This document shows positions 5,950-52,523 of a DNA stretch of 64,000 bases, piece by piece. The stretch's first letter is position 1. Each line of letters begins with the position of its first letter. The stretch comes from Eledone cirrhosa (Eukaryota): contig OZ024741.1 of NCBI GenBank assembly GCA_964016885.1, positions 120,342,001 through 120,406,000 of the forward strand, written 5' to 3'. The notes under the pieces were generated by a model. That model saw only the letters and a program-made list of their open reading frames with translations. It was not told where the DNA came from and searched no databases. A program made the translations under genes and the position numbers.

Positions 5950-7735
5950 GATAATAAAATAAAATAAATTTACAATATGTTAAAATACATTAAAATCTGT
6001 ATATAACTTCACAAAGAGATAAATAAAAAGGGGGGGGGTAAAGGAGAAGGTACGTGTATTCATGTGATATACTACACACAGGTGCAAACTTAGGTCCGTG
6101 TATGGAACAAACAACAATAACAATAACAATAATAACAATAATAATTGTTCCAAAGTGGAACATGTGGAGAGTATATATTCACGATTGACGGGGTACACAT
6201 TCATGGGGACGCTTGGCCCGGTCACCTTGGGGTATGTCACTGTGGGTGGGGTGTGCTGTTCTATATGTTTGGGGTATTTGACTGAACGACCGTGGACTCC
6301 GTGTCAGTCAGTCCCGGCATAGGCGATGTACCTGCCCAATGTTGCGTGCGGGGTCTGGTGTGCACCTTGGTTTATTTAGGTTTGCTACACGAGGCGTATA
6401 ATATCATCTGGGTATGGTGTCAGGTCCCTTAATCCCGTTGGGCCGCTCGAGTCTATGCGTACTCCGTCTCATGCCCTTGGCCTGTGCTACCTGGAGGATT
6501 CCATGCTTCAAATGTGTATCTTCTCTGGTGTCTGCAGGTCATGATAATTTTAGACTTCAGGTTGACCGAGTCATCTTTCAGTCTGACTATCTCCATGGCC
6601 TCGTGTAGGCATAATCGGCACGTTCTACTTCCAGCCGAGTATGCCCTCGCATGCCGAACGATATTCCATTCCAGGGCGTACGGAGTGCCTTGGTCTTTCA
6701 GGTTCCACACCAGGTCCACTAACCTAGTGTAGTGTCTTTTGCTACGGTCCATGAAGGAATTCGTGTGATTATATATCCGCGATTTAAAGGTCGTGGATGT
6801 TGCGTTGATGTAGGTGCGATGTGCATTTTGGGTTCTAACCTCACACTTGTATATCAGGTCCTTCGTCAAGCATTTTCCCTGTAGGGGTCATTGGGTGCCC
6901 GCTCTGCAGTTACAACTTCTGTTGTCAGTTCTTTCGCATCTGATGTCTGGGCTTCGATCTGTTATGGCCCTCTCAGGATTATCAGGGTGTTGTTCCGCCG
7001 ATACCGTGGTCTCCCCTATGCCACTCGTTCCCTCACGGCGTTGGATCATATTACCTTCTACGGGCGTTTCGGCCGCCTCGGGAGCTGGGTTGTCATTTGA
7101 GGGGCGGTCCCCGAGTGGTCCTCTGCGCTCCGATAGACGGTCATTCTGTCGCCGCGGTTGACGGCCAATGTTCGCCATCTTCACCGCGTTAGTTTTAGCC
7201 ATGTAATCGGCCATGTTAGGTGCTGTGGAGAAGGAAAACTTCACCGTGTGGCGGCTGAAGATTTTGTGGTACTTGTTTGTCGGCGGAAAGCACTCATCCA
7301 ACGCTCGGAAAAAAGTCCTGGCACGTTGGTGCGTAGATGTTTGGAGTAAGGCGCATTGAACTAAGTAACGGCCTTAGATCTGTTCCTTCGTGTGCGTGGA
7401 TTCTTGTTGGTGTGTCCTGGACCCGATGTCCGTCCCGTGCTCTGCCCAACCACAATTACATCTCCTGTGTTGTCTCTATCTATGCGCCCGCTGTGGGCAT
7501 TAGTTATTAAGGTAGGTCGTTCTATGTTGTCGGCTATACATCTAGTCCCCTTAGGTCTATGTGATGCTGCTGTCGGTGCTGTACCACTACAACCAGGCCG
7601 GGTGTGCTCTCTGGCGGGTGCCACAGCCGTACGTGTCGTTGTCCTGTCCCTAGTCCTAGTTACCGCGAAGCATGCAGTGTGCGTGCCAGGCCTATGTCTC
7701 CGCGTACTGGGTGGTCTAGCTTCTATGGGTGCCTT
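5950..7735 (-). mobile_element. Penelope-like element, 3-prime part (GIY-YIG region plus 3-prime UTR), degraded
   Basis: ORFs 6888-7301 (FP..NKYHKIFSRHTVKFSFS...SCNCR) and 6453-6869 (TFKSRIYNH...CRLCLHE...CRH), homologous to 17400-18080. Confidence 0.8.
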
Positions 7736-8434: not shown

Positions 8435-11400
8435 TTAATTGTAAGTTGTGATGTTGCTGTTCCACTCATATTTTCTATTTAATTTTGGTTGTAATTCTTT
8501 TATGTTTATTGCCTCTGTAATTTGTCTAAACATTGCATCTTTTCTGTGTGTAGATTCTATTTTTATTTCTATGTTCTCTAATTTACCCTTGTGTTCTATC
8601 TTAGCATGTTGGTAGAGTACAGATGATTCTTTATTATCTTGAAGGTCTCGCCAGTGTTCATTTAACCGTTCCCCTATACTACGAGCTGTCTCACCTATGT
8701 ACACTATATTTTTGTTTCTACATTGTCCTTCAGTACATCTTATGCTATACACTACATTTCTAGTTTTACAGTTAATATGGGGGCTTATTTTACAGTTAAT
8801 ATGGGGGCTTATTTCTTATCTATACATGAGGGTCTTTGGAAAGGGTATGTCTTGCTAATAAGTGTTTTTACGGAGGTACCTGGTCTTTCTACTATCTTAA
8901 TATTGAGTTTATGTTTATTTAGGGCCCTTCTAAATTTGTAGGATAGTTCGCCTCTAGGGGTTGTATCGATGAACATTACACTCTGGTATTTATTGCTATC
9001 ATACCATGAGTTTATTCTATTAGCCTTGTTCCTAGTTCTTTCTATTCTATTCCAAAATTTGCTCCTATACAAGAGGCAGGTCCCATTTATGTCATTATTT
9101 ACCATTTTTTCCCATTTGGTTCTGGCTCCTCTATACACTCTGATTATATCTCTCTGATTGTAGCCAGAGAACTGCATACGGTGGATGAAGTGTTGTATGT
9201 GTCTCTCTAGTTCTTCGGGGTTGCACATGCGGGACACATTTCTCATCACCCGTACCAAATCCGCAATCAGTATGTTGATTTTGGTATGGTCCGAAATGGC
9301 CGAGTTTCGGTGGATCAGATGTTTGGAAGTCATGGGTTTGGCATAATGGGAATGGAGGATTTGTTTTTGGTTGTTAATGGTATCTAACCAGAGCTCTGTG
9401 TCTAGTACAGGTAATCGATGGTTGGGGTGTCTACTTGGGTAGTCTATAGTAACTCTAATGCTCTTGTGGATGGAGTTTGCTATTTGCTGGATGCTTTCAA
9501 TTGTGTTTTTCTCTAGTTCCTGACTGTTCTCTAGTGGGGGTGTCTTAACTACGATGTTTATATCATCTACGTAGCGGGAGTACATTATCAGGGTTAAGCT
9601 GTCTTCTAATTGTTCTTTAAGTTTAAGTTTAAGTCTACTGTCCCACCATACCATGAATAAGTTAGCTATGTCGCCTGTAATTCTAACACCAATGGCTGCT
9701 CCTTCCTCTTGGGCATATGTTTTACCATTAAATTTGAACATATGTTCCTTAAGGGTTAGTTTTATGCTGGCCCCTACCGCATGTGCAATCATTTTCTTCA
9801 GTTCATCGTGGTTTTCGGGTGTCCGTATGGCTCTGGTCCACCCGTTCCATCTATCTGTGTGGGTTTTCTTGGCCATTGAGGTAATGGTAGGTGGTCTGCC
9901 TCTTGCTGGTCTTGTAGGGCACAGGTTGCTAAGGTCATATGTGCCTAGGTAACTATTACTATAGGTAAGCTTAAGTAAAAGTCCCAGCTCACTGGTATCA
10001 ATCCCACGGAACTCAACCTTGCTCTCGCTGATCATTTCTACGCATTTCTCCACAGCAAAATCCACGTCAATAGATGGATACAGGGACACAACATCCATAC
10101 TGCCTATTATGCAGTTTGTTAGGTCCCCAGATCGGTTACTCACGCCGATTCTGCTGAGGAGGTCCTCCGTGCTGTCACATACATCTGGGGACATTTCAAT
10201 GATGGGGCGTATGATCAGGGAGAAGAAGTAGGACAGTCTGTAGTTACTAGCAATGTTAGCTCCACAGACTGGCCGTGTTGGTGGTCCCGCGACAGGGTCA
10301 CAGCCCGTTTTATGGTCTTTTCGAAGCCCATACAACGCCGGCACGTCATTGTTCCAGGCCTGGAAGTTGTTGGCAGTCCTTTTGTTGGGCTGCATTATAT
10401 TCGTCCACATCACCATATGGGCATTGAGGGCTTTTTCTCTATCCTCATGCTCCTGTGGTGTTACCTCTCTTGTGTTAGTGATGTGGGGTTGCATTGCCTG
10501 GATGTAGTTTGGCAGGCTGTCAACCGACATTCTGCCAGACTTGTCTGTTGGAAAGCATGCTCTCCATCACGCGAGCGCTGCATGAGCTTACGCAAGCCAT
10601 TTGCAGATTTTTCTCCCAGTTGCTGGGCCTCCATTCTATTATGCTTCTTGCTATACTGTTCTATAATATTTCTAAGTTCGGATCTAGCTATACTAAATTG
10701 TGCTTCTGTTTGTTCATCGACCTGCGACGGCAGTTGCGTGCGTTTGTTAAATGGTAAAGTCGTGGCGTGGACTCGTCGCAGGTCGAATGATTTATCGGAG
10801 GGATTATAAAACGGAGAGTTCCAGGCTGCTGCTTTATGTGTGCTAGTGCTATTATAGTTAGTTGTGTTGTTTCTATTTCTATTTCCACCAACAGCCTCAT
10901 GGTTGTTTCTATGTCTCTCATAATTACTCGTGTCTCTTTCCACTGGCTCATTGTTGTTATCTACCCTATTTTGTGTGTCTGTGTGTTCGTCTTGGTTATT
11001 CTCTTTGTCCTTAGTCTCCCTTCTCCTTTTAATCCTATTACTTTCCCTTATTTCTGTGATTTCTGTGCTACTGTCATTACTTGCTTTCTGTGTCTGTGTG
11101 TTTGTTAAGATTGTGGTGGTGGTGAGAGGCATTGAATGCGTGTGTGTTGTTGTTGTTGATGTGTGCTGTTGTTGATGTGTGTTGTTGTTGTCTCCGTGTG
11201 TGTTATTGTTGTTGTGTGTGTTGTTATTGTTGTTTGTGTCTGCGTGTCTGTTGTTGTTGTTTCTGGGGATGTTGTTATTGTTGTTGTTGTTGATGTGTGT
11301 GTTGTTGTTATTGTTGTTTGTGTCTGTGTGTCTGTTGTTGTTGGGATGTGTGTTGTATATGTGTGTGCGTATATTGTTGCTTTTGTTTTTGTTTTTGTTT

Positions 11401-12134
11401 TTGATGCTACAGCGTAGTTTTGTAAATGATTTTTCTATTTCTGACAGACAACTAATCATATTTACCTTCTTGAATGTCGCAAATTTCAGGGGCAAACACA
11501 ACACAGACATTTCGTCATTATCTATTCTTGCGTTCCCATATATATTGGTGTTTTTGTTGTTGAACTCTTCTGTTAATGAGGTGTCGGTCATGTTTATACC
11601 GTCGATTTTGTCGGGATATCTATTGGTATTCTCTATAGTATCCTGATTTAGCTTTATCTGTTTAAGCCACTTTAGTTTCCTGTTAAAGTGCTTATCACAT
11701 TCTTGAGTAATGTACTGTTCTTCAGGGCGTATAAGGCTTATAAATATTAGTTTCTCTCTTGGTGTGGTGATCCTAGCTATTTCTTGTATTAGGTTACGCT
11801 TTTGTTTTTCTTGATGACTTAATTCTCTATAGATCTTCTTTTTTATGTTTAGAATTAATGTTCGTTTTAGCCTATCTGCTTGTTTTTTGGTGAGTTGTAA
11901 TCTTCTAACGTCGGTATTGATGGTGTTGGTGTAGATTCTGGATGAGGCACACTGCTTTATGAAGTATAGTTGTCGAGATGTTATGGTTTTTCGTAGACAA
12001 CAGAACATGGTGGTTTTCAGTATCTTGTTAGCCTGGCTAAGGCTTACGATATTTCGTTTCTGAATTTGTTTAGTAAGATTCTTTATCTGAAATCGTGTGT
12101 TGAAACCGATATTGTTATACTTTGGGAGGGTCAT
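8435..12134 (-). pseudogene. PLE polyprotein (RT + GIY-YIG) split by at least two frameshifts
   Basis: ORFs 10461-12158, 8809-10530 (SMDVVSLYPSI, YSRYVDD) and 8435-8752 (VYSIRC...C...VYIGETAR...RLNEH). The TDKSGRM motif is restored across a frameshift at ~10545; a second lesion lies at ~8764-8815. Confidence 0.88.
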
Positions 12135-12266
12135 GTTGCCAATAAGAAACACACGCACCAGTTGCTTTCACTTCAATTTATTATATATTTATAAATTTAC
12201 AAATTTACAAATTTATAAATTTCTGGTTGGTTGGTTGGTTCCACAACCAGATAGTTGTTTATATAT

Positions 12267-12311
12267 AGTCATAGTCCTTTCGTCACACACTCTGTGACCT
12301 CTTCAGTGACT
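12267..12311 (-). ncRNA. Minimal type I hammerhead ribozyme in 5-prime pLTR
   Basis: Identical to 8180-8224. Confidence 0.8.
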
Positions 12312-13144
12312 GGGGATTCCTTTCTTTGTCTCCGTGCCTCTCCTTTGTTCTGTCCTACGCCATTTTGTTTCTGTGTGTGTGTTGTGTGCTCAGTTTGCGC
12401 ATGCGCCACATCCGGGTGTCTGTGTGTGTTTATGTTCATTTATCTATTTGTTTATTTATTTATTTATTTACATGTTATTGGTTGGTTGTTTGTTCTATGT
12501 GTGTGTTTTCATTTTGTCCTTAATTGTAAGTTGTGATGTTGCTGTTCCACTCATATTTTCTATTTAATTTTGGTTGTAATTCTTTTATGTTTATTGCCTC
12601 TGTAATTTGTCTAAACATTGCATCTTTTCTGTGTGTAGATTCTATTTTTATTTCTATGTTCTCTAATTTACCCTTGTGTTCTATCTTAGCATGTTGGTAG
12701 AGTACAGATGATTCTTTATTATCTTGAAGGTCTCGCCAGTGTTCATTTATCCGTTCCCCTATACTACGAGCTGTCTCATCTATGTACACTATATTTTTGT
12801 TTCTACATTGTCCTTCAGTACATCTTATGCTATACACTACATTTCTAGTTTTACAGTTAATATGGGGGCTTATTTTACAGTTAATATTGGGGCTTATTTC
12901 TTATCTATACATGAGGGTCTTTGGAAATACCATTAATGTACTTTAGGATAATAAATTTAACTATGGAAATCAGCTAGTTACCTCCCCTTACGCATTAACT
13001 CCCCTTACGCATTAACTCCCCTTAATCACACACACACTTCCGGAATATAATACAATGTCATCTCTCACAACAAAAACAACCTGATCTATGAATCGAATTA
13101 AAGAACGACAAGCTATGATTTATAACATGGTTCACCAAGCACCC

Positions 13145-16897: not shown

Positions 16898-18987
16898 GTA
16901 ATGCTATAATTGTAGTTTTACCTCCAGTTCAGTGGAGAGAGAGACCAATATTTGTCGACTAGTATGGTTTGTTATATTTATACCTAGATATATATATATA
17001 TAAAAATATATAAGTGCAAATCAAACTTTCTGAGTCCCCAAAACATACCCAAAATGAGTAAAATATGCAAATGCATGAATGATCTACAGTTCAATTATAA
17101 CCGGTAAATTTACAAGTTAAATATCCAAATTATATATTTAAAACAGAGACAGATAAAGAAAGATCCGAATCTAAATTATAAATATGTAAAATAATCATAA
17201 GGTGTGCATTTTTATCAAGTAAACAAGTTACCAAATAATATGTTTATATACCTAAAGAGGATATTTCATTCTAACATTAATTCTATCATAAATGATTAGA
17301 AAATAAAGCATTATTAAAGTTTTATAAACTGTTATGACTTTTTAGATCCAACAGTTGACAAGAGAGGTCAAAAATTAAAGCTTGTTTGTTTAGTGTTTTT
17401 TCCTGACTTTTTGCGAGGCTTGGAATGTAGACAAAGCTTTATGAAGGCAGTTTGAGAATAATTCACTTTTTTTGTTAATTAAGTTTTCATAATTAGTAAT
17501 TATTAATAGGGTCTCCTTTGTGCATAGGTTGCAGTTAGTTGATATAGACGAGTTCGAGTATATTTTACTATTACAAAGCTTCGTCCAAAAAATCGAGTAT
17601 TTTAAATTTTTGTCTTTTAATGACCATATAAGTTGTGATAAAGAAGTCGAAGACTTCCTATTAAAATTCGAAAATGAGCATTTGTGATTCGCAAATCTCG
17701 ATTTAAATGTCGAAGAAGTTGCCTCTATGTAACTGTGTTGTTATTTGTTTTTACGGTGCATTTATACACCAGATTTCTATCCAGACAATTATTTTGCAGA
17801 GGGCAATCTGGTTTATTTCTACAATTACATTTCAATTTATTATTATTTATATTAACACTATTATCAACAGCATTATGCTGATTTTGGTTTAGAATTTTAC
17901 TATTTAGTTTAGCGATGTTTTGGGCCATATTCATAGTTGTAGAATACGAAAGCTTAATTGTATGTCTATTAAATATGGAACGGTATTTATGTTGACTAGG
18001 GAAGGAATTATCTAAAGCCTTAAAGAATAGATTAGCTAGTGGTGTTCTTACTGCTACAGAAGCAGGGGGGGGGACCATATAACTGATTTAGTTCTGGTTC
18101 TTTTCCCCGATTTACTCACAGTACAGGTGTTTGAATTATAATTATTAGAATTTTTAGAATTTCGTTTATATATGCCATTATTTTTATCAGGATTAAGACT
18201 CGGATTATTATTGTCTATATATTCTATATTATTTTTATAACCTGCCTTTCTTAGCGCATAGTAATATCCTGCTTTTTCATCAAATATTGATTTATTGGCA
18301 GATATTCTAGTTATGCGTTTCTGTACACTATTTACAATTGCATTTTTCACAGATTTAGGGTGATTAGAGTAATAACTAACGTAATTTAAGTTTTCATTGG
18401 GCTTATGGAAAGGGTAATAAAAACCAGAGTTTAAGTTAAGGGTAACATCAAGGAAATTAACTATTTTGGTACCACTTTCTACCTCTAATTTAAGGTCGTA
18501 ATTTTTAAAGAATTCAATTATATTTTTCTTTACCCTATTTAGTTCTGTATTGTTGTGTTTAACAACCGTAAATAAAATATCGTCCCTATATAAACCACCG
18601 GTAATCTCCGGCAGTTTTCTATTTATCATATTATTTAAGATGAAAATCTCCAGAAGATCAGTGACTTGCGCTGAGTCCGATGATCCCATGGTAATGTCGA
18701 AGTTTCTATTTCTATCTGAGCGGGTCCAATACTCATTGTTGAAATTAATTAGAGTTCTTCTAGCAGTTAATATGATATCGATTTCATCCGCAGTTAGATC
18801 TTCATGTTTTTAAGCGTAGGATAAAGCCTTATTTAGTAGGTTAGGCGTAATGGAAGAGTAATAGCTTGTTATGTCTATCTGGATGAATTCATGGTTTTTT
18901 CTTATCATCTATATTTTACCAATCAATCACTTCATTTGCTAATGTTTAACTTTTAAATATATATATATATATATATGTGGGGGGGGT

Positions 18988-19239: not shown

Positions 19240-21620
19240 GTCTTTCAAATCACGATTTGGACACCATGGCCCACTCAAGTAGAGAGTCATTGTTTACGGA
19301 AACATATCCGGGTGTAGGAGGTTTATCCGGGATTTCTTGAAGGAATTTGTCCAAAGACTTCGTGAACTTTATGGGGTCTGTTTCCGTTTTAATTTGTTTG
19401 TGTGTAATGTTAAAGAGAGCGGGGCCAATTGAGGTGAAATAATTGTACCGTATTGTTGTTATGAGATGCGAGTATGATTTCTGTCGTGGGCGGATAGCAC
19501 GGGGCCCAAGCCATGAGGTGTACCTTAAAGGGAATGCCAGCATCATTTGGGTAATGCTGATGGAATATTTTCAACATCATGCAGATAATGTACCACTCAC
19601 AGCGACATTGCAGAGAATAAAGGTTGAACTTTTCTAGTTGACTCCAATAGTAAAGGCCTGTCATGCCATCTATCTTTTTTTGTAATTGAACTTTGAGGTG
19701 CTTCAACTTCCATGATACTTTGTTTCGTGGGGGAAGACCAGGTGGACAACAGTATTCAAGGTGGGGGTCGGGCTAAAGGAGAGAAGAGGAGGATAACAGT
19801 GTGGATATCTCTCGACTGGAAGGTTCTGAGAATCCAGGAACACATTCTGCGGGCTATGACAACTTTGCTGTTTATATGAGTGGCCCAGCTTATGTTGTTA
19901 TCCACAATTACTCCCAGGTCTCTGATGTTGTTGGATGCCACGAATTTCGCCTGAAGGAATGGAGTATGTGAGTTTCAGGGCATCCTCTTTTCCAAAGTGG
20001 ATTAACTCAAATTTATATTCGTTCAGCAGCATATTGTTCTTTTCCGCCCATTGGATAACAGCCAGTAGATCTGACTGAAGGCAAGTCCGGTCACCCACCT
20101 CATTGATGACCTTCTGGAGCTTGGAATCATTTGCAAAGATTCTTATGTTGCTGTGCTTGATCATGTCAGTAATGTTATTAATGTAGATGATGAAAAGAAG
20201 TGGGCCCAACACAGTGCCTTGCGGGACACCACTGCTGACTTTCGCTTGGCTTGATTTTACTACTTCGACTACAACATGTTAGGCTCTGTCTGTCAAAAAA
20301 CATTTGATCCACTGTAGTAACTTTTCAGAGACACCAATGTTGGATAGTTTTTTCAATAGAATCTTATGATCAACCCTGTCAAAGGCCTTGTTGAAATCAA
20401 CGTAAATGGCATCAGTGTTGGAGCCCTCTCCCAAGGCTCTCAAAATATCATCAAAGTGATGCAGGAGCTGCGTTAGGCAGTCCCTTCCATTACAGAACCA
20501 ATTTTGGTTGGAGTTCAGCAGGCCGTTGCTTTCAAGAAAGTGGGTTATTCGTGATCTCACCACCTTAATGATATGAGAGGTGAGTGTGATCGGCCGGTAG
20601 TTCACTGCAAGGGACTTGTTTCCCTTTTTGAAAACTGTGACAACAGACTGGGACGGAAAGTTTTCAGGAATATAGCCAGCTTCCAGTAAGTTCCTCCACA
20701 GATTAGCAAGAGGAGATGCAAGTTGGTGTTGATACTCCTTCAGGACACAAGTAGGGAACCTATCGGGGCCTACTGCTGAATTGTGTTTAATTTCGTTTAT
20801 TGCCGCTAAGATATTAGGGGCGCCAAACGTTATGTCCGATATAGTGCGTTGGGGATTAACATCACATCTAGCCCAGATCGGCCATATCAGGATTGCTGAA
20901 AACAGAGCAGTATTGTTTCTGCAGTATCTCACCCATAGTTTTGGCATTATCTTGGAATGTGCCATTTTCATCAATTAGAGGGCCAAGAGTGGAGACAGTG
21001 ACCTTGTGTTTTTTCGCAAATGAAAAGAACACTTTAGAATTCAGTTTGATTTTCTCAATGGCCCATTTCTCCTCAGCTGTTCTTTCGTTTTTTATTATGG
21101 TCTTCATACATTGTTGGGGGTTTATATTTTTTTTCTTTTTGAGCAGTGCCATAGCCGTCGAATGTGTGTGTTGCTGTCGGCAGTATTTTAGTATGTTAAC
21201 TTTTTTGTTTGTTCTTTCTATTTTTCTGATAATAGTTTTTCTGTTTAGGGGGGATACTGCACTTTTTGTTCATAGTTCTTGGTGGGATGTGTTTTGCACA
21301 TATATTTGTGACTGTATCTACAAAGATATTTCGATGTTGGTGTGCGTGTGAAAAAAAACAGTCAGCATGTGATAGCTTGTTCATGATTGCGTCCCAGTTG
21401 GCATTATAGAGATCCATGTTATCAAATGGGTGAGCTGGAGAGATGTCACTAGGATTAGCTTTCGGCTGGTGGAATCTCAAGTTACAAAGACCCTTGTCAT
21501 GGTCTGAAAGAAGGGTTTTTTCCACTGTAATATTATATTAGTGTTAGCGTGGTTACTAAATAGTGGGTCCAAAATCTTCTTCTGATACCTTGTTGGTGCA
21601 AGGTCAAGTTGGGACAAGAA
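19240..21620 (-). mobile_element. Degraded CR1/L2-group LINE (RT region)
   Basis: NYRPITLTS, YVDFNKAFDRVDH, SGVPQGTVLGPLLFIIYIN, FANDSK and RDLGVIVD across frameshifted ORFs. Confidence 0.85.
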
Positions 21621-23198: not shown

Positions 23199-23777
23199 CT
23201 GGATGTTTTACGATATCTGATCCGGTTTTGTGCGTTCTAAGTCCGAATCCCACCTGCTTCTGCCAGATGTTGCGACCAGCAGATAGTATCAGCTATGGAA
23301 AGACCAGTATAAACATAATTTCCTTGATTCGATCTGACAATCAGCTCTTTTCATCTACAACCCGAAAAATATGATATTAAATTGTAATATACATTGTCTT
23401 ACTCAATTTGATCGGTTAATTCTTATAGCAACCTATTGTTTCTTCTATTGCAGATATGACTTCAAAGATTAACATATAAGCGAAGTCAAGTTGCCGCTAA
23501 TCTGTAATCCAGTATTGCTTGCTTGACAAACTACAATTGGAATATATTGAATATTATTTATGTATCCACATTTTAGCAAAATTTTATCTAAAAAGGATAT
23601 TCAAGCCATACTGTTAGCTATAGAATTTAGTTTAGAGTATTTATTACTCGTTGATGCCTAATCAAATTCAAAAACGAAACAGCCAAAGCCATTAACCAGA
23701 TAATACAATTATCAAACATTAGATATCAAAATATATCCTGGATTTCTCCAAGCCTGTAGTCTGACTTAAAACTTCAA

Positions 23778-25709
23778 ATGGAAATATTTTCAAAATATTT
23801 CTTTTTTATATTATTTCTTAACCTTACGTCAATAAATAATACCATTTCAACATTAAATGGTTTTTGTTTTAGAACTTCAAATTGTGAAGCTTGCTCTTGT
23901 CACCAACACTGTCATATATACGATAGATGTTGTTCTGATGAGGTTCAACAGAGAAATTTTGACAACAAACAGTTGGACCCATCGACATATTATAGCTGTG
24001 GCGTTGATGATACGATGAATTATTATATTTTTCATCGCTGTCCACCTAATCACAATGTTATAAATCATGTGACCAACTGTGAACGTCCTAAAACAGATGA
24101 TCAACTACAGAACATACCTGCGTTCGGTAAAACAAGTAAAAGACTCTATAGGAATTTATACTGTGCTCTGTGTCACGGAGAGGAATACATTTTATGGAAT
24201 CTTCACTATAAGTGCAATAAACATGTAGATGTAACTCCTGACAATTTAATGGATATAGTTAATGGTAGTCAATGTGATGAAGTCAAAAAGCTTCCCTCTC
24301 CCAATTTTAAGGATTATCTGATTCCTTGCACTGCTAATGATATTGAATGCTCGCACCATATTGTAAATAAAACATCAGAAAATATCTATACATATTTAAA
24401 CAAAAAAGAGTTCGACATAATTCCCTGTATATTGCCTAATGATTATAAACTTCCAGACGTCTCATGTTTTCAACGTGGTCCAATGAATAGCAAGATACAA
24501 ACGATTCCACTAACTATTATTTTTGATTATAATAAGAAATATTTTCTCATCGAGGAAATCATTGACGATAAAAAATCTGTCAAAAAATTGCCATTTTGTC
24601 CAGAATACACTAAATACGACAAAAACACTATGCAATGTCGGGTAAATTTTTACCATACTCTTTTAAACTGTACTGCAACGAGATTAAATGAAACTGAATA
24701 TCATATCACTAGTGATGGCCTCCTTTACTTAAATAAGACACAACGTCTGTTGAACCAATCAGAATTCAGTCAAGATTCTCAAGGTGTAAGTATCTGTGTA
24801 AAAAATGGTACGAATGTAATATCAAAATATTCCACTGTTGAGAGTTATATCACACTTATAGGACTAATAATCTCTATTCCAGCTCTAGCCATCACTATTA
24901 TAGTATATCTATGTATACCTAAACTCCGTACCTTACCAGGTAAATTACTCATTAGTCTTTTATCAGCACTATTTCTAGCTGAGCTTCTGTTTCTGATCAC
25001 ACCATATGTTACTACACCTACAGCTGTATGTACATCTTTAGCTGTTGTGATTCATTATACCTTTCTATCTGCTTTCTTCTGGATGAATGTCATGTCATTT
25101 GATGCCTGGTACACTTTCTCAGGACTTACACAACTTCGCAGTAGAGGAAAGGGTAGCAAGAGATTTATATTGTATTCTTTATATGCTTGGATTTCTCCAT
25201 TTGTAATAGTTGCAGTGTCACTTATATTTGAATACTTACCAGGAAATCATGGAATATCTCCAGAATATGGCAAGGGTATTTGTTGGATTACAAATGGAAA
25301 AGGTCTTTTGTACCTCTTTGCAATTCCAGTAATGGTTATATTATGTCTTAATATAACTGCATTTATGTTCACCGCAAGAGGGCTATATTTGGCTAGCAAA
25401 CATTCTTCAAAATATTTATCTAAACATAATAAAAATGAATTCTTCATATATATAAAACTAAGCTTTATCATGGGATTAACATGGATATTTGCATTCCTAT
25501 ATACCTTTACAAAAATTGAAGAATTTTCTCTGCTGTTTTGTATTTTAAACTCCTTTTGTGGATTATTCATTTCTTTATCGTTTCTATTCACAAAGATCGT
25601 CTGCCAGAATTTTCTGCAAGCGTTTCTTAAGATTCGAAAACATGTCAACTTGTCAGACGCTTATATCTTTACAGTTTCTGACAAAATTTCGTCAAATACC
25701 CAAACATGA
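23778..25709 (+). CDS. Methuselah-like / adhesion-type class B GPCR, 643 aa, uninterrupted ORF
   Basis: Signal peptide, somatomedin-B-like CSC...C..Y..CC.D, YRNLYCALC motif, and 7TM with LRTLPGK, HYTFLSAFFWMNVMSFD, YGKGICWI, KLSFIMGLTWIF. Confidence 0.92.
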   Translation: MEIFSKYFFFILFLNLTSINNTISTLNGFCFRTSNCEACSCHQHCHIYDRCCSDEVQQRNFDNKQLDPSTYYSCGVDDTMNYYIFHRCPPNHNVINHVTNCERPKTDDQLQNIPAFGKTSKRLYRNLYCALCHGEEYILWNLHYKCNKHVDVTPDNLMDIVNGSQCDEVKKLPSPNFKDYLIPCTANDIECSHHIVNKTSENIYTYLNKKEFDIIPCILPNDYKLPDVSCFQRGPMNSKIQTIPLTIIFDYNKKYFLIEEIIDDKKSVKKLPFCPEYTKYDKNTMQCRVNFYHTLLNCTATRLNETEYHITSDGLLYLNKTQRLLNQSEFSQDSQGVSICVKNGTNVISKYSTVESYITLIGLIISIPALAITIIVYLCIPKLRTLPGKLLISLLSALFLAELLFLITPYVTTPTAVCTSLAVVIHYTFLSAFFWMNVMSFDAWYTFSGLTQLRSRGKGSKRFILYSLYAWISPFVIVAVSLIFEYLPGNHGISPEYGKGICWITNGKGLLYLFAIPVMVILCLNITAFMFTARGLYLASKHSSKYLSKHNKNEFFIYIKLSFIMGLTWIFAFLYTFTKIEEFSLLFCILNSFCGLFISLSFLFTKIVCQNFLQAFLKIRKHVNLSDAYIFTVSDKISSNTQT

Positions 25710-30757: not shown

Positions 30758-32707
30758 TTATTCTGGTTGATTATTTTTAGTTGTTGATGTTACTTTACAG
30801 GAAAATGTGGTAATATTAGATTTCATTTTTGAGAAGCTCGTAAACTGCTCACATTTTTTAGCTGTTAATCTTGTAGAAAGGAAAGAAAAACTAACAAATA
30901 AACCCAAAAATGAATTGAAGAAACAGAAAAGGAGAGAAAACTCACTGATATTTGTGAACGAATATAGGATTCCCCAAATCCATGTTAAACCCATAACGAG
31001 ACTCAGTTTCAAGAATATTTGGTAGTGAATTGTATGGAAATTTAATAAATATTTTGAAGAACGTTCCATCTGTAAATAGAGACCTCTTGAAATAAATATA
31101 AAAGCTAGAACATTTAACGATAACAATAGTATAACCGGGATTATGAAAACCCATAACAGAATATTTCCATTTGCAATCCAACATACTCCCTGCCCATAAG
31201 CTGGAGAAACAGCCTGATTTATTGGTATAAACTCAAGTATGAGTGACATTATTACAATTATAAGTGGACTGATCCAAGCATATAAAGAATATGACAGAAA
31301 TCTTTTACTGCCCCGATTAGAAATACGAAATTGCTTGAATCCTGAGAAAGTGTACCAGGCATCAAACGACACGACATTCATCCAGAAGAAAGATGCCAGA
31401 AACGAATAATGCATCAAAACAGCCATTGATGTACATAGAACAGTATATGGGGTCACATATTTAGACGTGAGAAACAAAAGCTCAGCTAGAAACAGTGATG
31501 ATAGAAGACTGATTATTAATTTACCTGGTAAGGTACGTAGTTCAGGTATACTGAGATATACTACAATAGTGAAGGCCAAAGCAGGAAGAGAAATTATAAG
31601 ACCCACAAATGTGATATAGCTCTCAGCAATAGCATATCTCGATATATTGTTGGTCTGTTTATCGACACAGATACTTATCCCATGAGCGTCTTGATTGTAT
31701 TCTGATTTATTCAACAAACGTTGGCTAATGTTCAGATAAAGAAGACCATCGTCATTTATGTAATATTCGTCATCGTCTAGTCTAACAGCAATACAATGGA
31801 TTAATGAGTGATAGAAAATTGAACGACACTTGTTTTGATAGACATCAAACAATGAAACATTAGTACAATCAGTAGCATGTATTGTTTTTGTGATCCTATT
31901 TGTACCGTCATTCTTCTGAACAACACTTATATATTGTAATATATTAGAGCTATGATCAAATATTATAGTCAATGGATGGATGATTTGAAATTTCATTTCC
32001 AAACTTTCATTAAATGTATTGTTGAAATCAGTACACAAAGCACAAGGATGAAACGTATGTGCTTCCCTATACGTAGATACCAGCGATGTAGAATTTATTT
32101 TACATATTTCCGGTCTATTTTTACGTTTTTTCCTTATAGAGCAGTTCGAAACATCGTCTGAGCATTCGCGTATATTATTAATGAATGTGATATCTGGGAC
32201 ATCAAATGAAGAAAAGCTACATTTACCGTCTGAAAGATGTTTGGAAAGTTGATTGAATGTAATGCTCTCCATGTTGTTGCATTTATAAATTGATTTACCA
32301 AGAATGTATTCTTGGTTGTTGCACAGAGCACAGAATAAGTTCTTGTACATTCTTTTGTCAGTTTTCCCGAAAGCTGGTACTTTCAAGATATGGTCTTCGT
32401 CAAGGGAATTTTCACATTTGCTCACGTGCTCTCTATTGGTGTAATTAGGACGGCATTCGTCGAGGGAGATGTAATATCCGACCTTCATCTCCGTACAACT
32501 ATGAGTCGAAACATTTCCAATGTAAGAAACTTCACGGTTTTTTAGATCTGGACAACAATTGTTCTGATAGCGACATTCTGTTTGACAGGAACATCTATGA
32601 TACAGCCGCCAGTCTAAACACGAGAATGAACTCGCATCATATTGTTTGAGTTGTAAACATAAACTAACATTTATAAAACTAAAGAATAAAATTGAAAACC
32701 ACTTCAT
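30758..32707 (-). CDS. Methuselah-like / adhesion-type class B GPCR, 649 aa, paralog of 23778-25709
   Basis: Signal peptide, CSCQTECRYQNNCCPD, YKNLFCALCN, DGLLYLN..QRLLN, and 7TM with LRTLPGKL, HYSFLASFFWMNVVSFD, YGQGVCWI, KLSLVMGLTWI. Confidence 0.92.
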   Translation of the reverse strand: MKWFSILFFSFINVSLCLQLKQYDASSFSCLDWRLYHRCSCQTECRYQNNCCPDLKNREVSYIGNVSTHSCTEMKVGYYISLDECRPNYTNREHVSKCENSLDEDHILKVPAFGKTDKRMYKNLFCALCNNQEYILGKSIYKCNNMESITFNQLSKHLSDGKCSFSSFDVPDITFINNIRECSDDVSNCSIRKKRKNRPEICKINSTSLVSTYREAHTFHPCALCTDFNNTFNESLEMKFQIIHPLTIIFDHSSNILQYISVVQKNDGTNRITKTIHATDCTNVSLFDVYQNKCRSIFYHSLIHCIAVRLDDDEYYINDDGLLYLNISQRLLNKSEYNQDAHGISICVDKQTNNISRYAIAESYITFVGLIISLPALAFTIVVYLSIPELRTLPGKLIISLLSSLFLAELLFLTSKYVTPYTVLCTSMAVLMHYSFLASFFWMNVVSFDAWYTFSGFKQFRISNRGSKRFLSYSLYAWISPLIIVIMSLILEFIPINQAVSPAYGQGVCWIANGNILLWVFIIPVILLLSLNVLAFIFISRGLYLQMERSSKYLLNFHTIHYQIFLKLSLVMGLTWIWGILYSFTNISEFSLLFCFFNSFLGLFVSFSFLSTRLTAKKCEQFTSFSKMKSNITTFSCKVTSTTKNNQPE

Positions 32708-33099
32708 TGTTTAGCAAGTCCTATACTAAATGAAACCACATAAGCAAAACATTCTTGAAAAGTATAAAACAGCACTATAACTGTATCGCATTAAAAATTG
32801 AAGTCTTGACTCGGTCCACCAGTAAAGATATTATAAACGTTTCAATTTATAGACCAGTTTTTTTTTATATTTTCTACTAAATCATTACAGGATGTTAAGA
32901 GTTACTATGGGTGTTGTTCAAGTTGTAACTTGAGACAATAGGTTAATATGCAGGCATTTGTTATTATTTTTAAATGTCTTTCCAATCGATCGGCAGTTTC
33001 CATTTCTATTTCTTTCTTTTTCAATAAACATCCGAAAAGCAGCCCTTCTCTCAGTCACATGCGTGTTGGGTCTCTATAGACTCTGGCGACGATTCTTCT

Positions 33100-35136: not shown

Positions 35137-37225
35137 GTGCACTCTGTGTGATAAAGTGCAGTTCCTCAACTGCAAGCTTATTATCTTTATCTCACTGAGT
35201 GAGTGGATAATGGCCGGAGATCACTGAAATAAATTCAGCTGTTAAATGCTGCAGGCGAATGAAGTTTGGCACCAGATGGCAGAGGATCCCTTGGTTCAAT
35301 TAAGAGGTCAAAAATGCCATCCGAGCAAAGAAGGAGGCATACAAAGCTTGGCTTAGAAATAAGTCCTCCTTCTTACACGTGAGTCACAAGCAGTCACGAA
35401 GAATCGCAGCAGAGACAGTAAAGGCATCCAAAGACATGGGAGGACTTTGGAGTTAAGCAGGAATCTGACTTCAGATCATCAAATAAAGTGTTCTGGCAGG
35501 TCATCCACCGACTTTATAATTTTAAAAAATCCTCCTCGACACCTGCTATCAGAAACGCTCTTGGGTCTCACCCCTCTTCAGGGAGATGCATCCTCGTGAG
35601 GTGGAGAAAATACTTTGCTGATCTCCTGAACCTGATCACAATGGCAACTTCTGCTGTATATGAGGAGCATCTCGGGGCGATGACTTATCTCTCGGGGGCG
35701 GAGCTTACGAGAGCAGTTAAAGAGCTCAAAAGTAGCAAGGCTGTTGGGGAAGATGAAATTCGACCCGAGATATTAAAAGCCTTAAATAGAGAAGGTATTT
35801 TCTGGATGACTCGTGTGTACCGGGTGGCCTGGATCTCAGGAAAGGCACCTAAGCAATGGTAATTAGGAGTGATAATCCCAATTTTCAAAAAGGAAGACAA
35901 CAGAGATTGTTCCAATGATAGAGGGATCTCCTTCTGAAGCCTCCCCAGTAAAATCTATGCTACGTGTCTGGCAAAGAGATATAGGGAGATTGACGAGTCC
36001 AAGTTAACTGATGAACAGTGCGGTTTTCGCTCTGGATACAGCACAGCCGACCAAATATTCACACTGAGGAAGGTCTTCGAGAAATCGTGGGAGTGCTGGC
36101 AAGAGGTGTATTCTTGCTTTGTGGACCTCGAAAGGGCATACGATCGCGTTCCACAGGACCTGCTGTGAAAGGTTCTGCAGGAGTATGGGATCGATGGGCA
36201 ACTTCTTGTTGCACTGATGTCTCTATACGAATGCCCGAGTATTTGTGTTCGGATAAATGGGGCTAAATCAAAACCATTCAATGTGGGAGTCGGACTCCGC
36301 CAAGGGTTCGTACTGTCACCTCTCCTGTTCATTATTTTCATGAACAGGATTGACATACGCAGTCGGGTTGGAAGTGCTATCACAACTGGCAGATGTAGGA
36401 TCAGTCGGCTGAAATTTGTAGACGACATGGTATTACTTAACTCGTCAGAAGGTGATTTCCAACATTCACTTGATATGTTTGATGCCGAGTGCTGTATGGT
36501 TGGAATGAAAATCAGTGGTGCGAAAACTGAGACACTCGTCCTCTCAAGGAAGCCTATGCAGTGCACTCTCAACTGTGCAGTTCCTCAACTGCAGGCTTAT
36601 TATCTCACCGAGGGAGTGGGTAATGGCTGGAGATCACTGAAATAAATTCCGTTGTTAAATGCTGCGGACGAATGAGGCTTTGTGTGACACCAGATGGCAG
36701 AGGTCAAAAATGCCATCCGAGCAAAGAAGGAGGCCTACAAAGCTTGGCTTGGTAAGAAGTCCTCCTTCTTACACGTGCGGCACATGCAGTCACGAAGTCC
36801 CTCTACAGGTGAATGGAGTTATATTGAAGCAAGTGGAGAAATTCAGGTATCTCGGAGCCATATTTACGAGTGATGGAAAGCAAGAATGTGACGTAAGTAC
36901 AAGGGATTGCAAGATCTGGTACAGTAATGCACCAGCTTCAACAATCAGTGATCAGAAGTGAGGTTGGAGTAAAAGTCAAACTCGCTATCTTCAATTCAGT
37001 ATTCGTGCCAACCCTTACCTATGGTCATGAATCTTGGGTAATGATGGAAAAGATACGATCGCGAATACAAATGGCTGAAATGGGGTTCCTCCGAGGAGTC
37101 TTTTGAGTAACGTTACTCGAAGATCAGAGAGTTGCTACAGGTAGAGTCGCTACTTCTTTGAGACATCACAGCTCTGATATTACGGGCATGCAGTGAGACT
37201 GTCTCAGGAAAGAATCGCTGGACAT
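35137..37225 (+). mobile_element. Degraded RTE-clade LINE (RT region)
   Basis: KAVGEDEIRPE, FVDLERAYDRVP, GVGLRQGFVLSPLLF, FVDD, QVEKFRYLG and LTYGHESW, with stops and frameshifts. Confidence 0.88.
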
Positions 37226-39957: not shown

Positions 39958-40359
39958 ATAAGCATCCAACACTAATTATATATATATATATATATATACG
40001 ATATTAAATAAATGGAAACTATATTTATAAAACCATATATATTTTACCATATATATTTCAGGAACATCATATTAAAAATATGGTATGCCTTCATCAGACA
40101 AAATACAATATAAACAGTCTTATAAATAGATAGATTTGACATACCTTACAACTTCAACTTCCATTCAAAAAGTCGATCCGGCAGTGAAAAATGTCAGGGA
40201 CAGTTATAAAAAGAAAGAAAGAAAGAAAGAAAGCGAAGAAAAAGAAGAAATGCATGCAACGAAAAACAGAGAGAGATAGACATAGAGAGACAGATAGAGA
40301 GAAGAAATTCATGCAAAGAAAAAACAGAGAGAGACAGATAGAGAGAGAAAAAAAACACA

Positions 40360-40441
<82 letters not shown>

Positions 40442-42147
40442 AGAGAGAGAGAGAGAAAAAATAGAAAGAGATAGATATAGATAGAGATAGAGAGAAAGAA
40501 AATAGGTAGTTGGGCACCAGTTGAATGACGTAGCAATGATATATTTATTTATTTATTCACCTATTCAGTTCTAGTATCAAGGTAGAGAGAGATATATGTG
40601 GTTAGGAGAGAAAACAGCCGTTACATAGAGAGAAAAGAAAAATATCCAGAGATAAACGAGGCAGACCCAAAACATTATGTTTCATCAATCTAAAAATATC
40701 AACCCGTATGAATTAGGCACCACAATGTAAACATCAGCATTCATGAATGAGACACGCACCAACAATGTGTGAAAAATAATGATCATATGTCCAGTCTAAA
40801 ACTCCTAGGTTTATAATCAGAACTGAGATAAAAAAACTGAGATAAAAAAACTGAGATAAAAAAATTCAAAAAAAATTGAAACACACAAGTATACATGCAC
40901 CCCCACGAAAAAAGAAAAAGAAAATAGAAGGTCACCCCAGATTCGATACTATAGACACCCATGTGAATCCACGTGATCAACTCTGCAAATTCCCACTTCA
41001 CATGAAAACATTCTCACTGTGCCACAAAAATTCCAGTATTCATATATGTGTACATACACATAAATATATATAGAATCTACATCAATTTTAACAATACCAC
41101 TCCTGTCTTTACTCTACATGACCATCGCTCAAGCACAAATAGACAACAGACATCAATATATCAATAAAAATATTAAAAAATTAAAAAATATTAAAAATAA
41201 AACACAGTATGCCCCGCAAATCAACCACAGAAATCAACCCCTCAAAATCAATTGACAACATATTGCCAAGTTCACCACAAGCATCAGAATCAAAAGCAAA
41301 CAAAACCAAAATTACCCACCAAATCCCGTCTAGCAGAAATCATTCCAAAAGTTCAGGATACCCATTCGATCTACAGATGGTCTCACATCCACCATAGAAG
41401 TCCATCTAGTGTAAAATCCATTCGATATATTTGGAGCATCAGCCTTTAGGGCAGCTCAATTATTCATGAAGAATGTTTTAAAAAAAAAAGAAATCGAAAG
41501 ACCCATCGGCGAGTTTCATAAATAATTACAAATCACAAGCAAACACACCACATTTCAAATCTATATTTACATCCAAAAGCCGAGCTCAATCCATGTCTGC
41601 AGCAACCGAACATATTTGTCCGCAAATTAAGGGAACCCCTAGATTTCAGCACAAAGAACATCTCCTCCGCGCAGAGGCCACATGTCCCAGAAGATGAATC
41701 AAAAGGAATCCCTCCTGAGACTACACTCCAAGCCGTCGAACATCCAACGCCATCATGCCCAAGTTGCCAGAGCAAGCCTGACAGCGACGCCGAAGACTCC
41801 CTGCTTGGATCCGTGAAAGAACTCCCGTGGCCACTACAGCGAAGCCCAAACTCTGTCGAGGCGGAACCAACACAGCCAAAAGAATCCAAGTCCGTTCCAA
41901 CATTACAGTTGTATACCATATCTCCAACCAAGCAATTGTCACCCAACGGACACCTAGATCCATCCCCACAGTTACATCCGTCCACCTGGATATTATTTAT
42001 GCCACCATCGGCATTTCGGCCAGGCCCTAAATTCCCACTATTTATTCTATCAATACTGTAAATATACTCCAAATACTTGTTGAGTGCTTTTATATCAGTT
42101 ATAAATATTTACTCGTTGTAACCCAACAATTTAAATAAAACTTTGCA

Positions 42148-42179
<32 letters not shown>

Positions 42180-42197
42180 ATTAGTGTTGGATGCTTA
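39958..42197 (-). mobile_element. PLE 3-prime fragment (GIY-YIG + 3-prime region + HHR), A-to-G hypermutated
   Basis: ORF 41533-42072 keeps the CNC..CPL..CL / C.LC.EE / CRH skeleton of the PLE at 17400-17900; HHR at 40040-40105; short terminal inverted match aagcatccaacactaattata (39960-39980 / 42176-42196). Confidence 0.85.
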
Positions 42198-42255: not shown

Positions 42256-42421
42256 ATATCACATAAGAAAGGGAGAATCAGTGTTGTGACGAATAAAATT
42301 TATTAGACATAATACAATCGTTTCTCTGGCGACCAGTGAGCTGGTCGCCAGAGAAACGATTGTAATATGTCTAATAAATTTTATTCGTCACAACACTGAT
42401 TCTCCGTTTCTTATGTGATAT
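42256..42421. repeat. Near-perfect 166-bp palindrome centred on an HHR stem II
   Basis: Centre ctctggcgaccag-tgag-ctggtcgccagag, followed on each strand by GAAAC-GATT-GTA. Confidence 0.85.
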
Positions 42422-51006: not shown

Positions 51007-52523
51007 GGAGCCCCGAGCATGCTCCTAGCTGCTGATACGGTCATACCCTCGGCTACTGGGGTCCAACAGGGCGACCCTTTGGGACCCCTCCTGTTCGCCC
51101 TTGGTATTGACCACATCGTCCGGAGTATCACGGCCCTTCTCAACGTTTGGTATCTGGATGATGCTACGTTGGGCGGTCTGCCATGACCTTCAATCGGTGG
51201 TTCCTGCCCTGGTGGGAATCGGCTTCCAGGTCAACTCTGCCAAGTCGGAGGTGGTGAACGTCAGCCTCGATGCTGCGAGCTTTGCAGCCTCCATTCTCCG
51301 CCAGGTTCAGGTGACCCCAAAGAGGATGTCCTCATCCTCGGGTCACCGATCCACCCGCCGACCATCCATTCCACCATCATGTCCAGGCTTCAACAGATCC
51401 AGACTCTCACGAGCCGACTGGGCTTCTTTGACGGCCACCCAGCTCTCTTTCTGCTGAGGAACTGCTTCGCCATGCCGAAGCTCCTCTATACACTCCGCAG
51501 CGCTCCATGCTACACCCAGACATCTCTCCTCGCTGACCTCGATACTTGTATCCGAGCAGCAGCCGTGGGGATATGCAACGTCATGTTTTACCACATAGGG
51601 TGGCAACAGGCCACTTTACCTGTCAGGTATGGCGGCCTTGGCCTCCCGTCCCCGATCTCACTAGCTTTGCCGGCGTATCTTTCGTCGGTAACCTCGTGCC
51701 GCGTCCTCGTCAGCAAGGTTCTTCAAAACACAACAGAACCCTCTGTGTTCAGAGAACGTGAGGCCGCCTGTGAGACGTGAGACCGGCTGGGACTTAGCCC
51801 AGTAGACGTCCCTCCTCCTTCTCCCCCTGTTGACGTCAAGTCCCCCCAACGCACTTGGAATGCCATCCAGTGCAGCTTGGCCTCAGACAGGCTCACGCAC
51901 CAACTCGACCAGCACCGCCTTGCTTGTTTTCGTGCGGCCTCCAAACCCCACAGTGGTGCCTGGCTCCATGCCCTGCCCTCCTTCTCCACTGGCACGCAGT
52001 TAGACAAGCATAGCCTGCGAATCGGCGTTTCCCTGAGGCTCGGCCTCCGGATCTGCCAGCCACACCAATGTCGCTGCGGTTCCACCGTGGACTCTTTCGG
52101 CCTCCACCCGCTTTTCTGTCTCCACAGTGCCGGCCGCATTCCACGCCATGCTTCCCTCAACGAGGTCATTAAACATGGCTTGGACGCTGCAGGCTTCCCT
52201 TCCCAGCTCGAGCCAGTGGGGCTGGATCGAGGGGACGGCAAAAGGCCAGATGGCATGACCATCTTCCCGTTCCGCGGTGGCAAACCCCTCGTCTGGGATG
52301 CCACTTGCACCAACACTTTCTGCAGCCGCAACCTGGTGCAGTCTGCGACTGACCCAGGTTCTTCTGCACGTCGGGCTGATGGGGCCAAACTCCTCAAATA
52401 CCGGTCGTTCTACGACAGCTTTGCGGTCGTACCCCTGGCAGTGGAGACTTCTGGTGTCCTCGGCCCCAGGGCTACCTCCTTACTCACCACTATAGACGCT
52501 GAGCTGGCCATATGATACATATG
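51007..52523 (+). mobile_element. CRE-clade non-LTR retrotransposon fragment (RT + Zn knuckle + restriction-like endonuclease)
   Basis: GVQQGDPLGPLLFAL, WYLDD, LPVRYGGLGL, CRCG...H...C, RH..LN and GKRPDG...LVWDATC; 11-bp TSD taatgacgtat. Confidence 0.88.

Follow-up and report, generated by a model that had tools for sequence, protein, structure and literature searches.

Sense-strand A-to-G clusters in Penelope-like insertions of an octopod genome: a probable DNA record of RNA editing

A reading frame on the minus strand at 41533-42072 of the window (the whole stretch of 64,000 nucleotides analysed here, from contig OZ024741.1 of the Eledone cirrhosa assembly GCA_964016885.1) raises the question whether the editing of an RNA can be written into the DNA of an animal. 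The initial annotation had described the frame as a Lys-poor, Gly-rich endonuclease of a Penelope-like element, and had proposed that a hyper-edited RNA of the element was reverse-transcribed and inserted. The frame was indeed open; its 179 codons include 2 for Lys and 28 for Gly. It belonged to a multi-copy family within its own genome.

Substitution spectrum and anatomy of the window insertion

Searched at the DNA level, the genome (3.0 Gb) yielded 1219 candidates. Forty of them were scored and 30 loci compared, and the reference was the per-column majority of 21 near-identical unedited copies, the TC-rich microsatellite being excluded. Two copies within the window (6453-6900 and 17400-17900), which had been taken for unedited counterparts of the frame, belonged to distant families (31% and 29% amino acid identity) and were rejected as a reference. 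Over 1632 columns, the window copy differed from the majority at 185 places: 177 were A>G, and the remaining 8 comprised 2 G>A, 1 C>T and 5 transversions, with no T>C. The changes were confined to the sense strand of the element, and the spectrum was one-way (177 of 185 changes) and not balanced, in agreement with the clustered sense-strand A>G that had been anticipated. Against the five nearest relatives, 190 A>G were counted, and 98 of the 202 adenines within 41533-42072 had become G, with one other change. The 21 unedited copies differed from their own majority at 353 of 49,670 columns, with 59 of these differences being A>G (background about 0.3% per A). The edited stretch that had been traced downstream of the frame through about 40540-41530 did continue there, and reached about 40047, beyond its supposed limit at 40540. 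Reverting G to A, as first proposed, recovered the parental residues except at the V of FGCVG and the last G of SSASLSG, the parent reading YVG and LSG. At the latter position unedited copies have LSG and at least 70% of distant homologues LSK, which could be an old fixed change.

The insertion is composed of a 5'-truncated body and an inverted head (Table 1). The first codons of the frame (42056-42072) derive from the separate inverted piece, and the frame overruns its true stop because TAG became TGG; the true stop was likewise TGG in 6 of 9 edited copies checked besides the window copy. The flank duplication at 39959-39976 and 42180-42197 was inverted and replaced a direct target-site duplication. 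The head adjoined the body without overlap, the body stopping at the first 3' site and the head being made of the tail beyond that site. Contiguous body and head would be expected if one RNA had been primed twice, and the insertion may fit two primings on one RNA at adjacent start sites, as reported in vitro for a lizard Penelope element (PMC11167929).

Table 1. Coordinates of the parts of the window insertion (positions in the window) and of the open frames of full-length edited copies (positions in the locus)
Feature	Position	Strand	Remarks
Element body, 5'-truncated Penelope-like	39999..42055	-	Endonuclease end of ORF and about 1.5 kb of 3' UTR/pseudo-LTR; about 190 A>G (42051 to 40047)
Coding region of linker zinc-finger (CxCx5C) and GIY-YIG-type endonuclease	41548..42055	-	94/197 A to G; 56/168 codons recoded; TAG to TGG at 41548-41550
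3' UTR	41000..41547	-	46/169 A to G
Distal 3' UTR/pseudo-LTR with TC-rich microsatellite	39999..40999	-	37/137 and 13/97 A to G in the two halves
Hammerhead-like core words CTGATGA ... GAAA, 31 bases apart	40056..40097	-	One A>G inside
Inverted head: the tail of about 90 bases that follows the 3' end of the body in tandem copies	42052..42147	+	Essentially unedited
(TA)n target repeat at 3' end of body	39977..39998	.	
(TA)n target repeat at 3' end of head	42148..42179	.	
18 bases, reverse complement of right flank 42180-42197	39959..39976	+	
Full-length edited copy with open frame	L033:4216-6435	+	
Full-length edited copy with open frame	L150:3675-5885	+	
Full-length edited copy with open frame	L160	-	741 codons

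The window element is a young Penelope-like element with Hydra-type motifs in an octopod genome. Full copies of its family had one ORF of about 740 codons (reverse transcriptase, RT, and C-terminal endonuclease) and a 3' UTR of 1.5 kb, with upstream partial tandems (pseudo-LTRs), inverted 5'-truncated heads and a tail of about 90-100 bases; successive 3' ends were about 3.8 kb apart, and copies were inserted into (TA)n. The family ORF carried YRDD and Y.G.T...FK.R..NH motifs, 734 homologues being found, and RWR and DKT, which were carried by 89 and 98 of 100 long homologues. A CxCx5C linker and CxxC and CxH around conserved E and N were present, and CCHH was absent. Pfam scans of the edited ORF and two family ORFs assigned no family and a PDB sequence search gave no match, so that the identity as an EN+ Penelope-like element rests on motifs. 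By these the family appears Hydra-like: in common with the Hydra clade of C-terminal EN+ elements as described in PMC8557442, it has RWR for RWK, DKT, CxCx5C, CxxC..E..N..CxH, (TA)n targets, pseudo-LTR tandems, inverted heads and a tail. Elements of that clade are, as a tendency, generally below 3 kb (PMC8557442), whereas the octopus element is about 3.8 kb with a 1.5 kb 3' UTR and a tail of about 90-100 bases. Rfam scans of five loci gave no hammerhead at the family pseudo-LTR and two sub-threshold hammerhead hits in flanking DNA, and the predicted fold at the hammerhead-like core words was not a hammerhead.

Several other features were observed in the window. At 23760-25709 (+; best hits in Octopus, about 60% identity) and 30758-32710 (-) lay two GPCR genes of the Methuselah/adhesion type, both intronless and about 650 codons long. 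The two distant Penelope-like copies extended over 6453-7373 and 17400-18809 (-) with the same layout of linker and endonuclease, and a partial tandem at 8435-12900 (-) belonged to another family of Penelope-like elements, with an RT and a GIY-YIG domain recognised by Pfam. To the right of the insertion, a near-perfect, MITE-like inverted repeat of 166 bases occupied 42256-42421, where a sub-threshold Rfam match to MIR4208 probably reflects no more than the hairpin. The ORF list also showed pieces of other non-LTR retrotransposons at 19410-21269 (-), 35422-36645 and 51029-52515.

The edited sequence was present in genomic reads, whose comparison covered 41500-42145. A contig from run X1, which may be the assembly's own sample, matched 41688-42087 (400 bases) with 0 differences at a depth of 13.5 and crossed the junction of body and head. 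Among the X1 contigs listed, a second one, at 41537-41686, had 9 differences and represents another copy or allele, and RAD-seq runs of two other individuals had none or only single reads over the edited body. The exact contig makes an artefact unlikely, and the insertion would be inherited through the germline.

The A-rich state was the functional one. Among 120 distant homologues (35-45% identity), the family residue was commoner at 47 of the 56 changed columns and the window residue at 7, with 2 ties, which argues against a functional G-rich family consensus. Residues lost to the edits were conserved in almost all of 119 homologues (Tyr of the YIG-type motif in 119, a Lys in 118, a Thr in 114). 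Judged by this loss of invariant residues, the edited endonuclease of the window copy is very likely dead.

The same data bear on three further readings: that the changes arose in sequencing or assembly, that they are the work of GC-biased gene conversion, or that G was ancestral and the other copies decayed from a G-rich state. Some room for an artefact is left by run X1, in case it comes from the assembly's sample; against this, the contig was assembled independently from short words and was exact over its whole length, and separate edit sets occurred at 19 loci. GC-biased conversion would also raise T>C equally, of which there was none, and an ancestral G would have lacked the residues that the homologues keep. 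This group of explanations is improbable in the extreme.

Edited loci across the genome

At least 19 distinct hyper-edited loci, each with its own edit set, were found in three subfamilies: five in subfamily A (the window copy, L002, L003, L004, L007), six in subfamily B or B-like (L005/6, L008, L021, L056, L116, L122) and eight in subfamily C (L128, L130, L132, L138, L139, L140, L142, L162), the references of subfamily C resting on few unedited copies. A 25-letter A/G-tolerant pattern of the linker gave 503 matches and a 30-letter RT pattern 1000; patterns with G fixed at favoured sites gave 4, 13, 17 and 19 matches, each of which was checked individually. Two matches to the edit pattern that were not hyper-edited (L123, L127) and 17 of the 19 upstream-pattern matches, which were a subfamily variant, were left out of the 19 loci. 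L161 to L179 except L162 and L167 formed a fourth subfamily, several members of which lay close together on contig C18 (17 matches, 0 hyper-edited). When copies were sampled via unedited upstream DNA, none of 30 from subfamily A and 3 of 28 from subfamily B (query excluded) proved edited.

Edit sets overlapped partially (153 pairs; median Jaccard 0.39, maximum 0.70, between different subfamilies), which matches separate molecules with common site preferences. The window copy had 0-2 non-edit substitutions in common with any edited copy, and no daughters of edited copies were visible. Descent from a single edited master was rejected, edit sets overlapping little both across and within subfamilies. 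Three full-length edited copies had open frames of 737-741 codons with the RT unedited and the endonuclease recoded (Table 1). An A-to-G change cannot create a stop codon.

The sequence context of the edits was that of ADAR. In the window copy, 7 of 78 adenines were changed after G, compared with 13/65 after C, 70/172 after A and 81/177 after T (7/78 after G vs 164/414 after the rest, p = 2e-8), as the initial annotation had predicted for a 5' G; a 3' G preference was weak (25/51 before G vs 146/441 otherwise, p = 0.03). Pooled over 18 loci there were 1533 A>G, 24 C>T, 12 T>C, 10 G>A and 33 transversions (A>G 1533/1612), and 14% of adenines were edited after G vs 40-46% after A or T. Editing was lower after G in 18/18 loci, with TAG and AAG the top triplets and GAT the lowest. 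Upstream-G depletion is reported as the common metazoan hyper-editing motif, with octopus hyper-editing among the strongest (PMC5625713), and squid non-neural editing is described as directed at repeats (PMC9068888). The genome had 12 matches to PF02137 (A_deamin) in about four places, by a model that cannot separate ADAR from ADAT1 or ADAD. The insertion of a hyper-edited element RNA by reverse transcription, proposed at the outset, is thus supported: of the three outcomes that would have refuted it, none was observed, the spectrum being one-way, the A-rich state functional and the sequence present in genomic reads.

Direction and strand would be identical if, with no editing enzyme, a burst of reverse-transcriptase errors under nucleotide-pool imbalance had placed C opposite template A. 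The rate of change within a single RT pass would then have to jump at one place, from about 0-1% up to 20-55%, in nine copies of three subfamilies, the neighbour pattern was that of ADAR in 18/18 loci, and other errors were not elevated. Such a burst is most unlikely.

Both the A>G changes and the motif followed the sense of the element at all 19 loci, so that the template, if the enzyme is ADAR, was the sense RNA. A pattern for antisense editing with one site fixed gave 4 matches in the same genome, 0 of them hyper-edited, and the sense pattern gave 15 loci. An antisense Penelope template has been proposed by Gladyshev and Arkhipova, in a report that leaves the matter open (PMC3846280).

Edits were identical in both arms of four inverted insertions (L005/6, L056, L128, L138); in L005/6, the two arms had 0 differences over 633 columns and 66 common edits. 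The simple reading is that both arms came from one RNA or one cDNA, with later gene conversion between the arms being possible. In L056 about 0.7 kb of flank was duplicated too, like the inverted flank of the window copy, which points to a DNA-level step there. An asymmetry of the arms in L138 and L128 was only apparent, due to flanking TA repeats. These arms also weigh on the possibility that, at insertion or later, a DNA adenine deaminase modified the sense strand of the DNA, which would leave the same end product. The arms lie on opposite chromosome strands, yet carry identical sense-strand edits; flanks were unedited; the start of editing tracked element coordinates and not insertion ends; and deamination of first-strand cDNA would read T>C, which was absent. 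To our knowledge, no animal DNA adenine deaminase of such a kind has been described, and this explanation is very unlikely.

Start of editing and the partner RNA

The start of editing was shared among most informative copies (reference coordinates are those of locus L026, 1501 corresponding to 42055 of the window). Twelve edited copies extended upstream of their own edited zone, and editing started abruptly within reference 1360-1460, ahead of the endonuclease, in nine of them, with change-points at 1390-1397 (L003, L004, L008), about 1400-1460 (L056, L128, L005/6, L021) and 1360-1370 (L140, L142); the other three started at about 939, 1595 and 1715. One further copy was edited from its own 5' end at about 916, and the window copy was truncated about 105 bases downstream of the boundary. 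Edited adenines before vs after the boundary were 0/125 vs 112/249 in L003, 2/331 vs 134/249 in L008 and 1/430 vs 82/260 in L142. Upstream of 1360, 10 of 1897 adenines were edited in six A/B copies and 2 of 827 in three C copies; the counts at 1391-1500 were 89/260 (A/B) and 36/123 (C). Between 1360 and 1390, editing differed between A/B (1/89 adenines) and C (6/45; p = 0.006), and three base differences of subfamily C in that stretch abolish, on the antisense strand, an ATTAAA and a GT, and shorten a T6 run by one T. All subfamilies have an antisense GTGAG at reference 1361. As short words in AT-rich DNA that were picked after the boundary had been seen, these may be offered as candidate signals of an antisense end. 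The 3' end of editing was variable, from about 2800 up to about 50 bases from the 3' end (window copy).

A link of editing to 5' truncation was considered and rejected: of 18 edited copies, 6 have their end within reference 1432-1620, as do unedited copies, and the samples were biased. Separately, 5' truncation points seemed clustered at reference 1078-1113 and 1432-1501, in a sample biased by the queries used.

Taken from sequence comparisons, the one-way sense A>G, the ADAR context, the 19 independent edit sets, the shared start and the Penelope insertion anatomy together make ADAR editing followed by reverse transcription the best explanation, and a highly probable one. A fixed start with a variable end fits an antisense RNA whose 3' end or splice site is defined, and the shared start is likely to be the end of an antisense partner RNA. 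No long inverted repeat was found within the element body. A separate antisense RNA transcribed from the 3' UTR and ending just upstream of the endonuclease region is tentatively favoured as the duplex partner, short of being held probable.

The same ADAR editing and reverse transcription could have acted on a duplex supplied by particular source loci: a 5'-truncated copy with antisense transcription from a promoter in its flank, or a fold-back copy with an inverted arm that ends at the boundary. Three copies were truncated at reference 1384-1385 (L183, L187, L188; the search pattern for truncations covered only 1383-1393, in A/B-type sequence), inverted arms were common in the family, and both routes to Penelope dsRNA are described for Drosophila, where siRNAs matched inverted regions in one strain and were spread by bidirectional transcription in another (PMC3681739). 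Partners in three subfamilies would however have to end within about 35 bases of one another; L188 is without a stretch that was edited at 54/159 sites, which excludes it as the sole partner; editing was reduced near the private differences of L183 equally in subfamilies C and A, and hence bore no imprint of that copy; and a T>C-edited arm was seen in 0 of the 18 edited loci compared. Source loci of this type are a possible but rather doubtful origin of the duplex, and a partner other than these or a separate antisense RNA is unlikely.

On the best explanation, ADAR, as the presumed enzyme, most likely hyper-edited the sense RNA of the element from A to I while it was in a presumed duplex with a complementary RNA. 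The edited RNA would likely then have been reverse-transcribed into a (TA)n site, probably in the germline, each inosine being fixed as G. The inserting protein would have come from unedited RNA or have been made before editing, because the edited endonuclease is without invariant residues. Edited copies were a few percent of insertions, and insertion went ahead despite editing.

More speculatively, and with some doubt, the Penelope family may make its own antisense RNA with a sequence-encoded end, and germline ADAR may regularly rewrite the half with the endonuclease and 3' UTR. Retrotransposition would then make the edits heritable and kill the new endonuclease while the frame stays open, leaving a fossil map of germline dsRNA.

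Relation to known systems and meaning

ADAR-type A-to-G hypermutation is reported in Rous-associated virus, avian leukosis virus, HTLV-2 and STLV-3 (PMC12925331). As in those retroviruses, ADAR-edited RNA would be recorded by reverse transcription, the share of changed adenines in the double-stranded region reaching about half. The retroviruses are exogenous and the changes arise in infected cells, whereas the octopus element is an endogenous, non-viral retrotransposon with at least 19 edited chromosomal loci, edited stretches of 1.5-2 kb and a shared start.

APOBEC 'DNA editing' of LTR retrotransposons is described in vertebrate genomes, and as depleted in 19 invertebrate genomes by a screen that filtered for G-to-A and against A-to-G (PMC4866542, PMC2873906). 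The octopus copies resemble APOBEC-edited LTR elements in being hypermutated copies fixed in the genome, with a strand bias, an enzyme motif and damaged coding capacity. They differ in that APOBEC acts C-to-U on cDNA, giving G>A in the sense, whereas the octopus family, in a mollusc, has sense A>G that would be made on RNA. Clusters of sense G>A, the APOBEC hallmark, were absent from the window copy, which had 2 G>A, and A was the ancestral state.

ADAR hyper-editing of repeat dsRNA in animals has the same clustered A-to-I in repeats and upstream-G depletion, and is very high in octopus, in the accounts of PMC5625713 and PMC9068888. These describe it in RNA only, whereas the edits of the octopus Penelope stand in DNA. 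In LINE-1, as here, ADAR meets retrotransposon RNA, and restriction by ADAR1 and ADAR2, the subject of PMC5224506 and PMC8677026, is reported with editing apparently not responsible (PMC12925331). No edited insertions of LINE-1 are described there, whereas in the octopus family the editing would be recorded in the insertions. Searches of the open-licence PMC and bioRxiv literature turned up no account of germline DNA carrying ADAR-hyper-edited retrotransposon copies; data on other mismatch types in the supplement of PMC4866542 could affect this novelty. Screens for edited retroelements sought G>A in LTR elements, and would overlook such A>G copies.

That editing acts as an anti-retroelement mechanism is conceivable: it would ruin the endonuclease of the new copy, yet it touched only a few percent of insertions and did not stop them. 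RNAs destroyed before insertion leave no trace, so that insertions cannot settle a protective role. The identical edits in both arms constrain how inverted insertions form, and the motif polarity at the 19 loci bears, in favour of sense, on the open question of the Penelope template. The shared start of editing predicts where the antisense RNA ends. Each edited copy would read out one RNA molecule from the cells in which the element moves, and the family would be a DNA record of RNA editing as a mutagen, by way of retrotransposition, in an animal of extreme editing.
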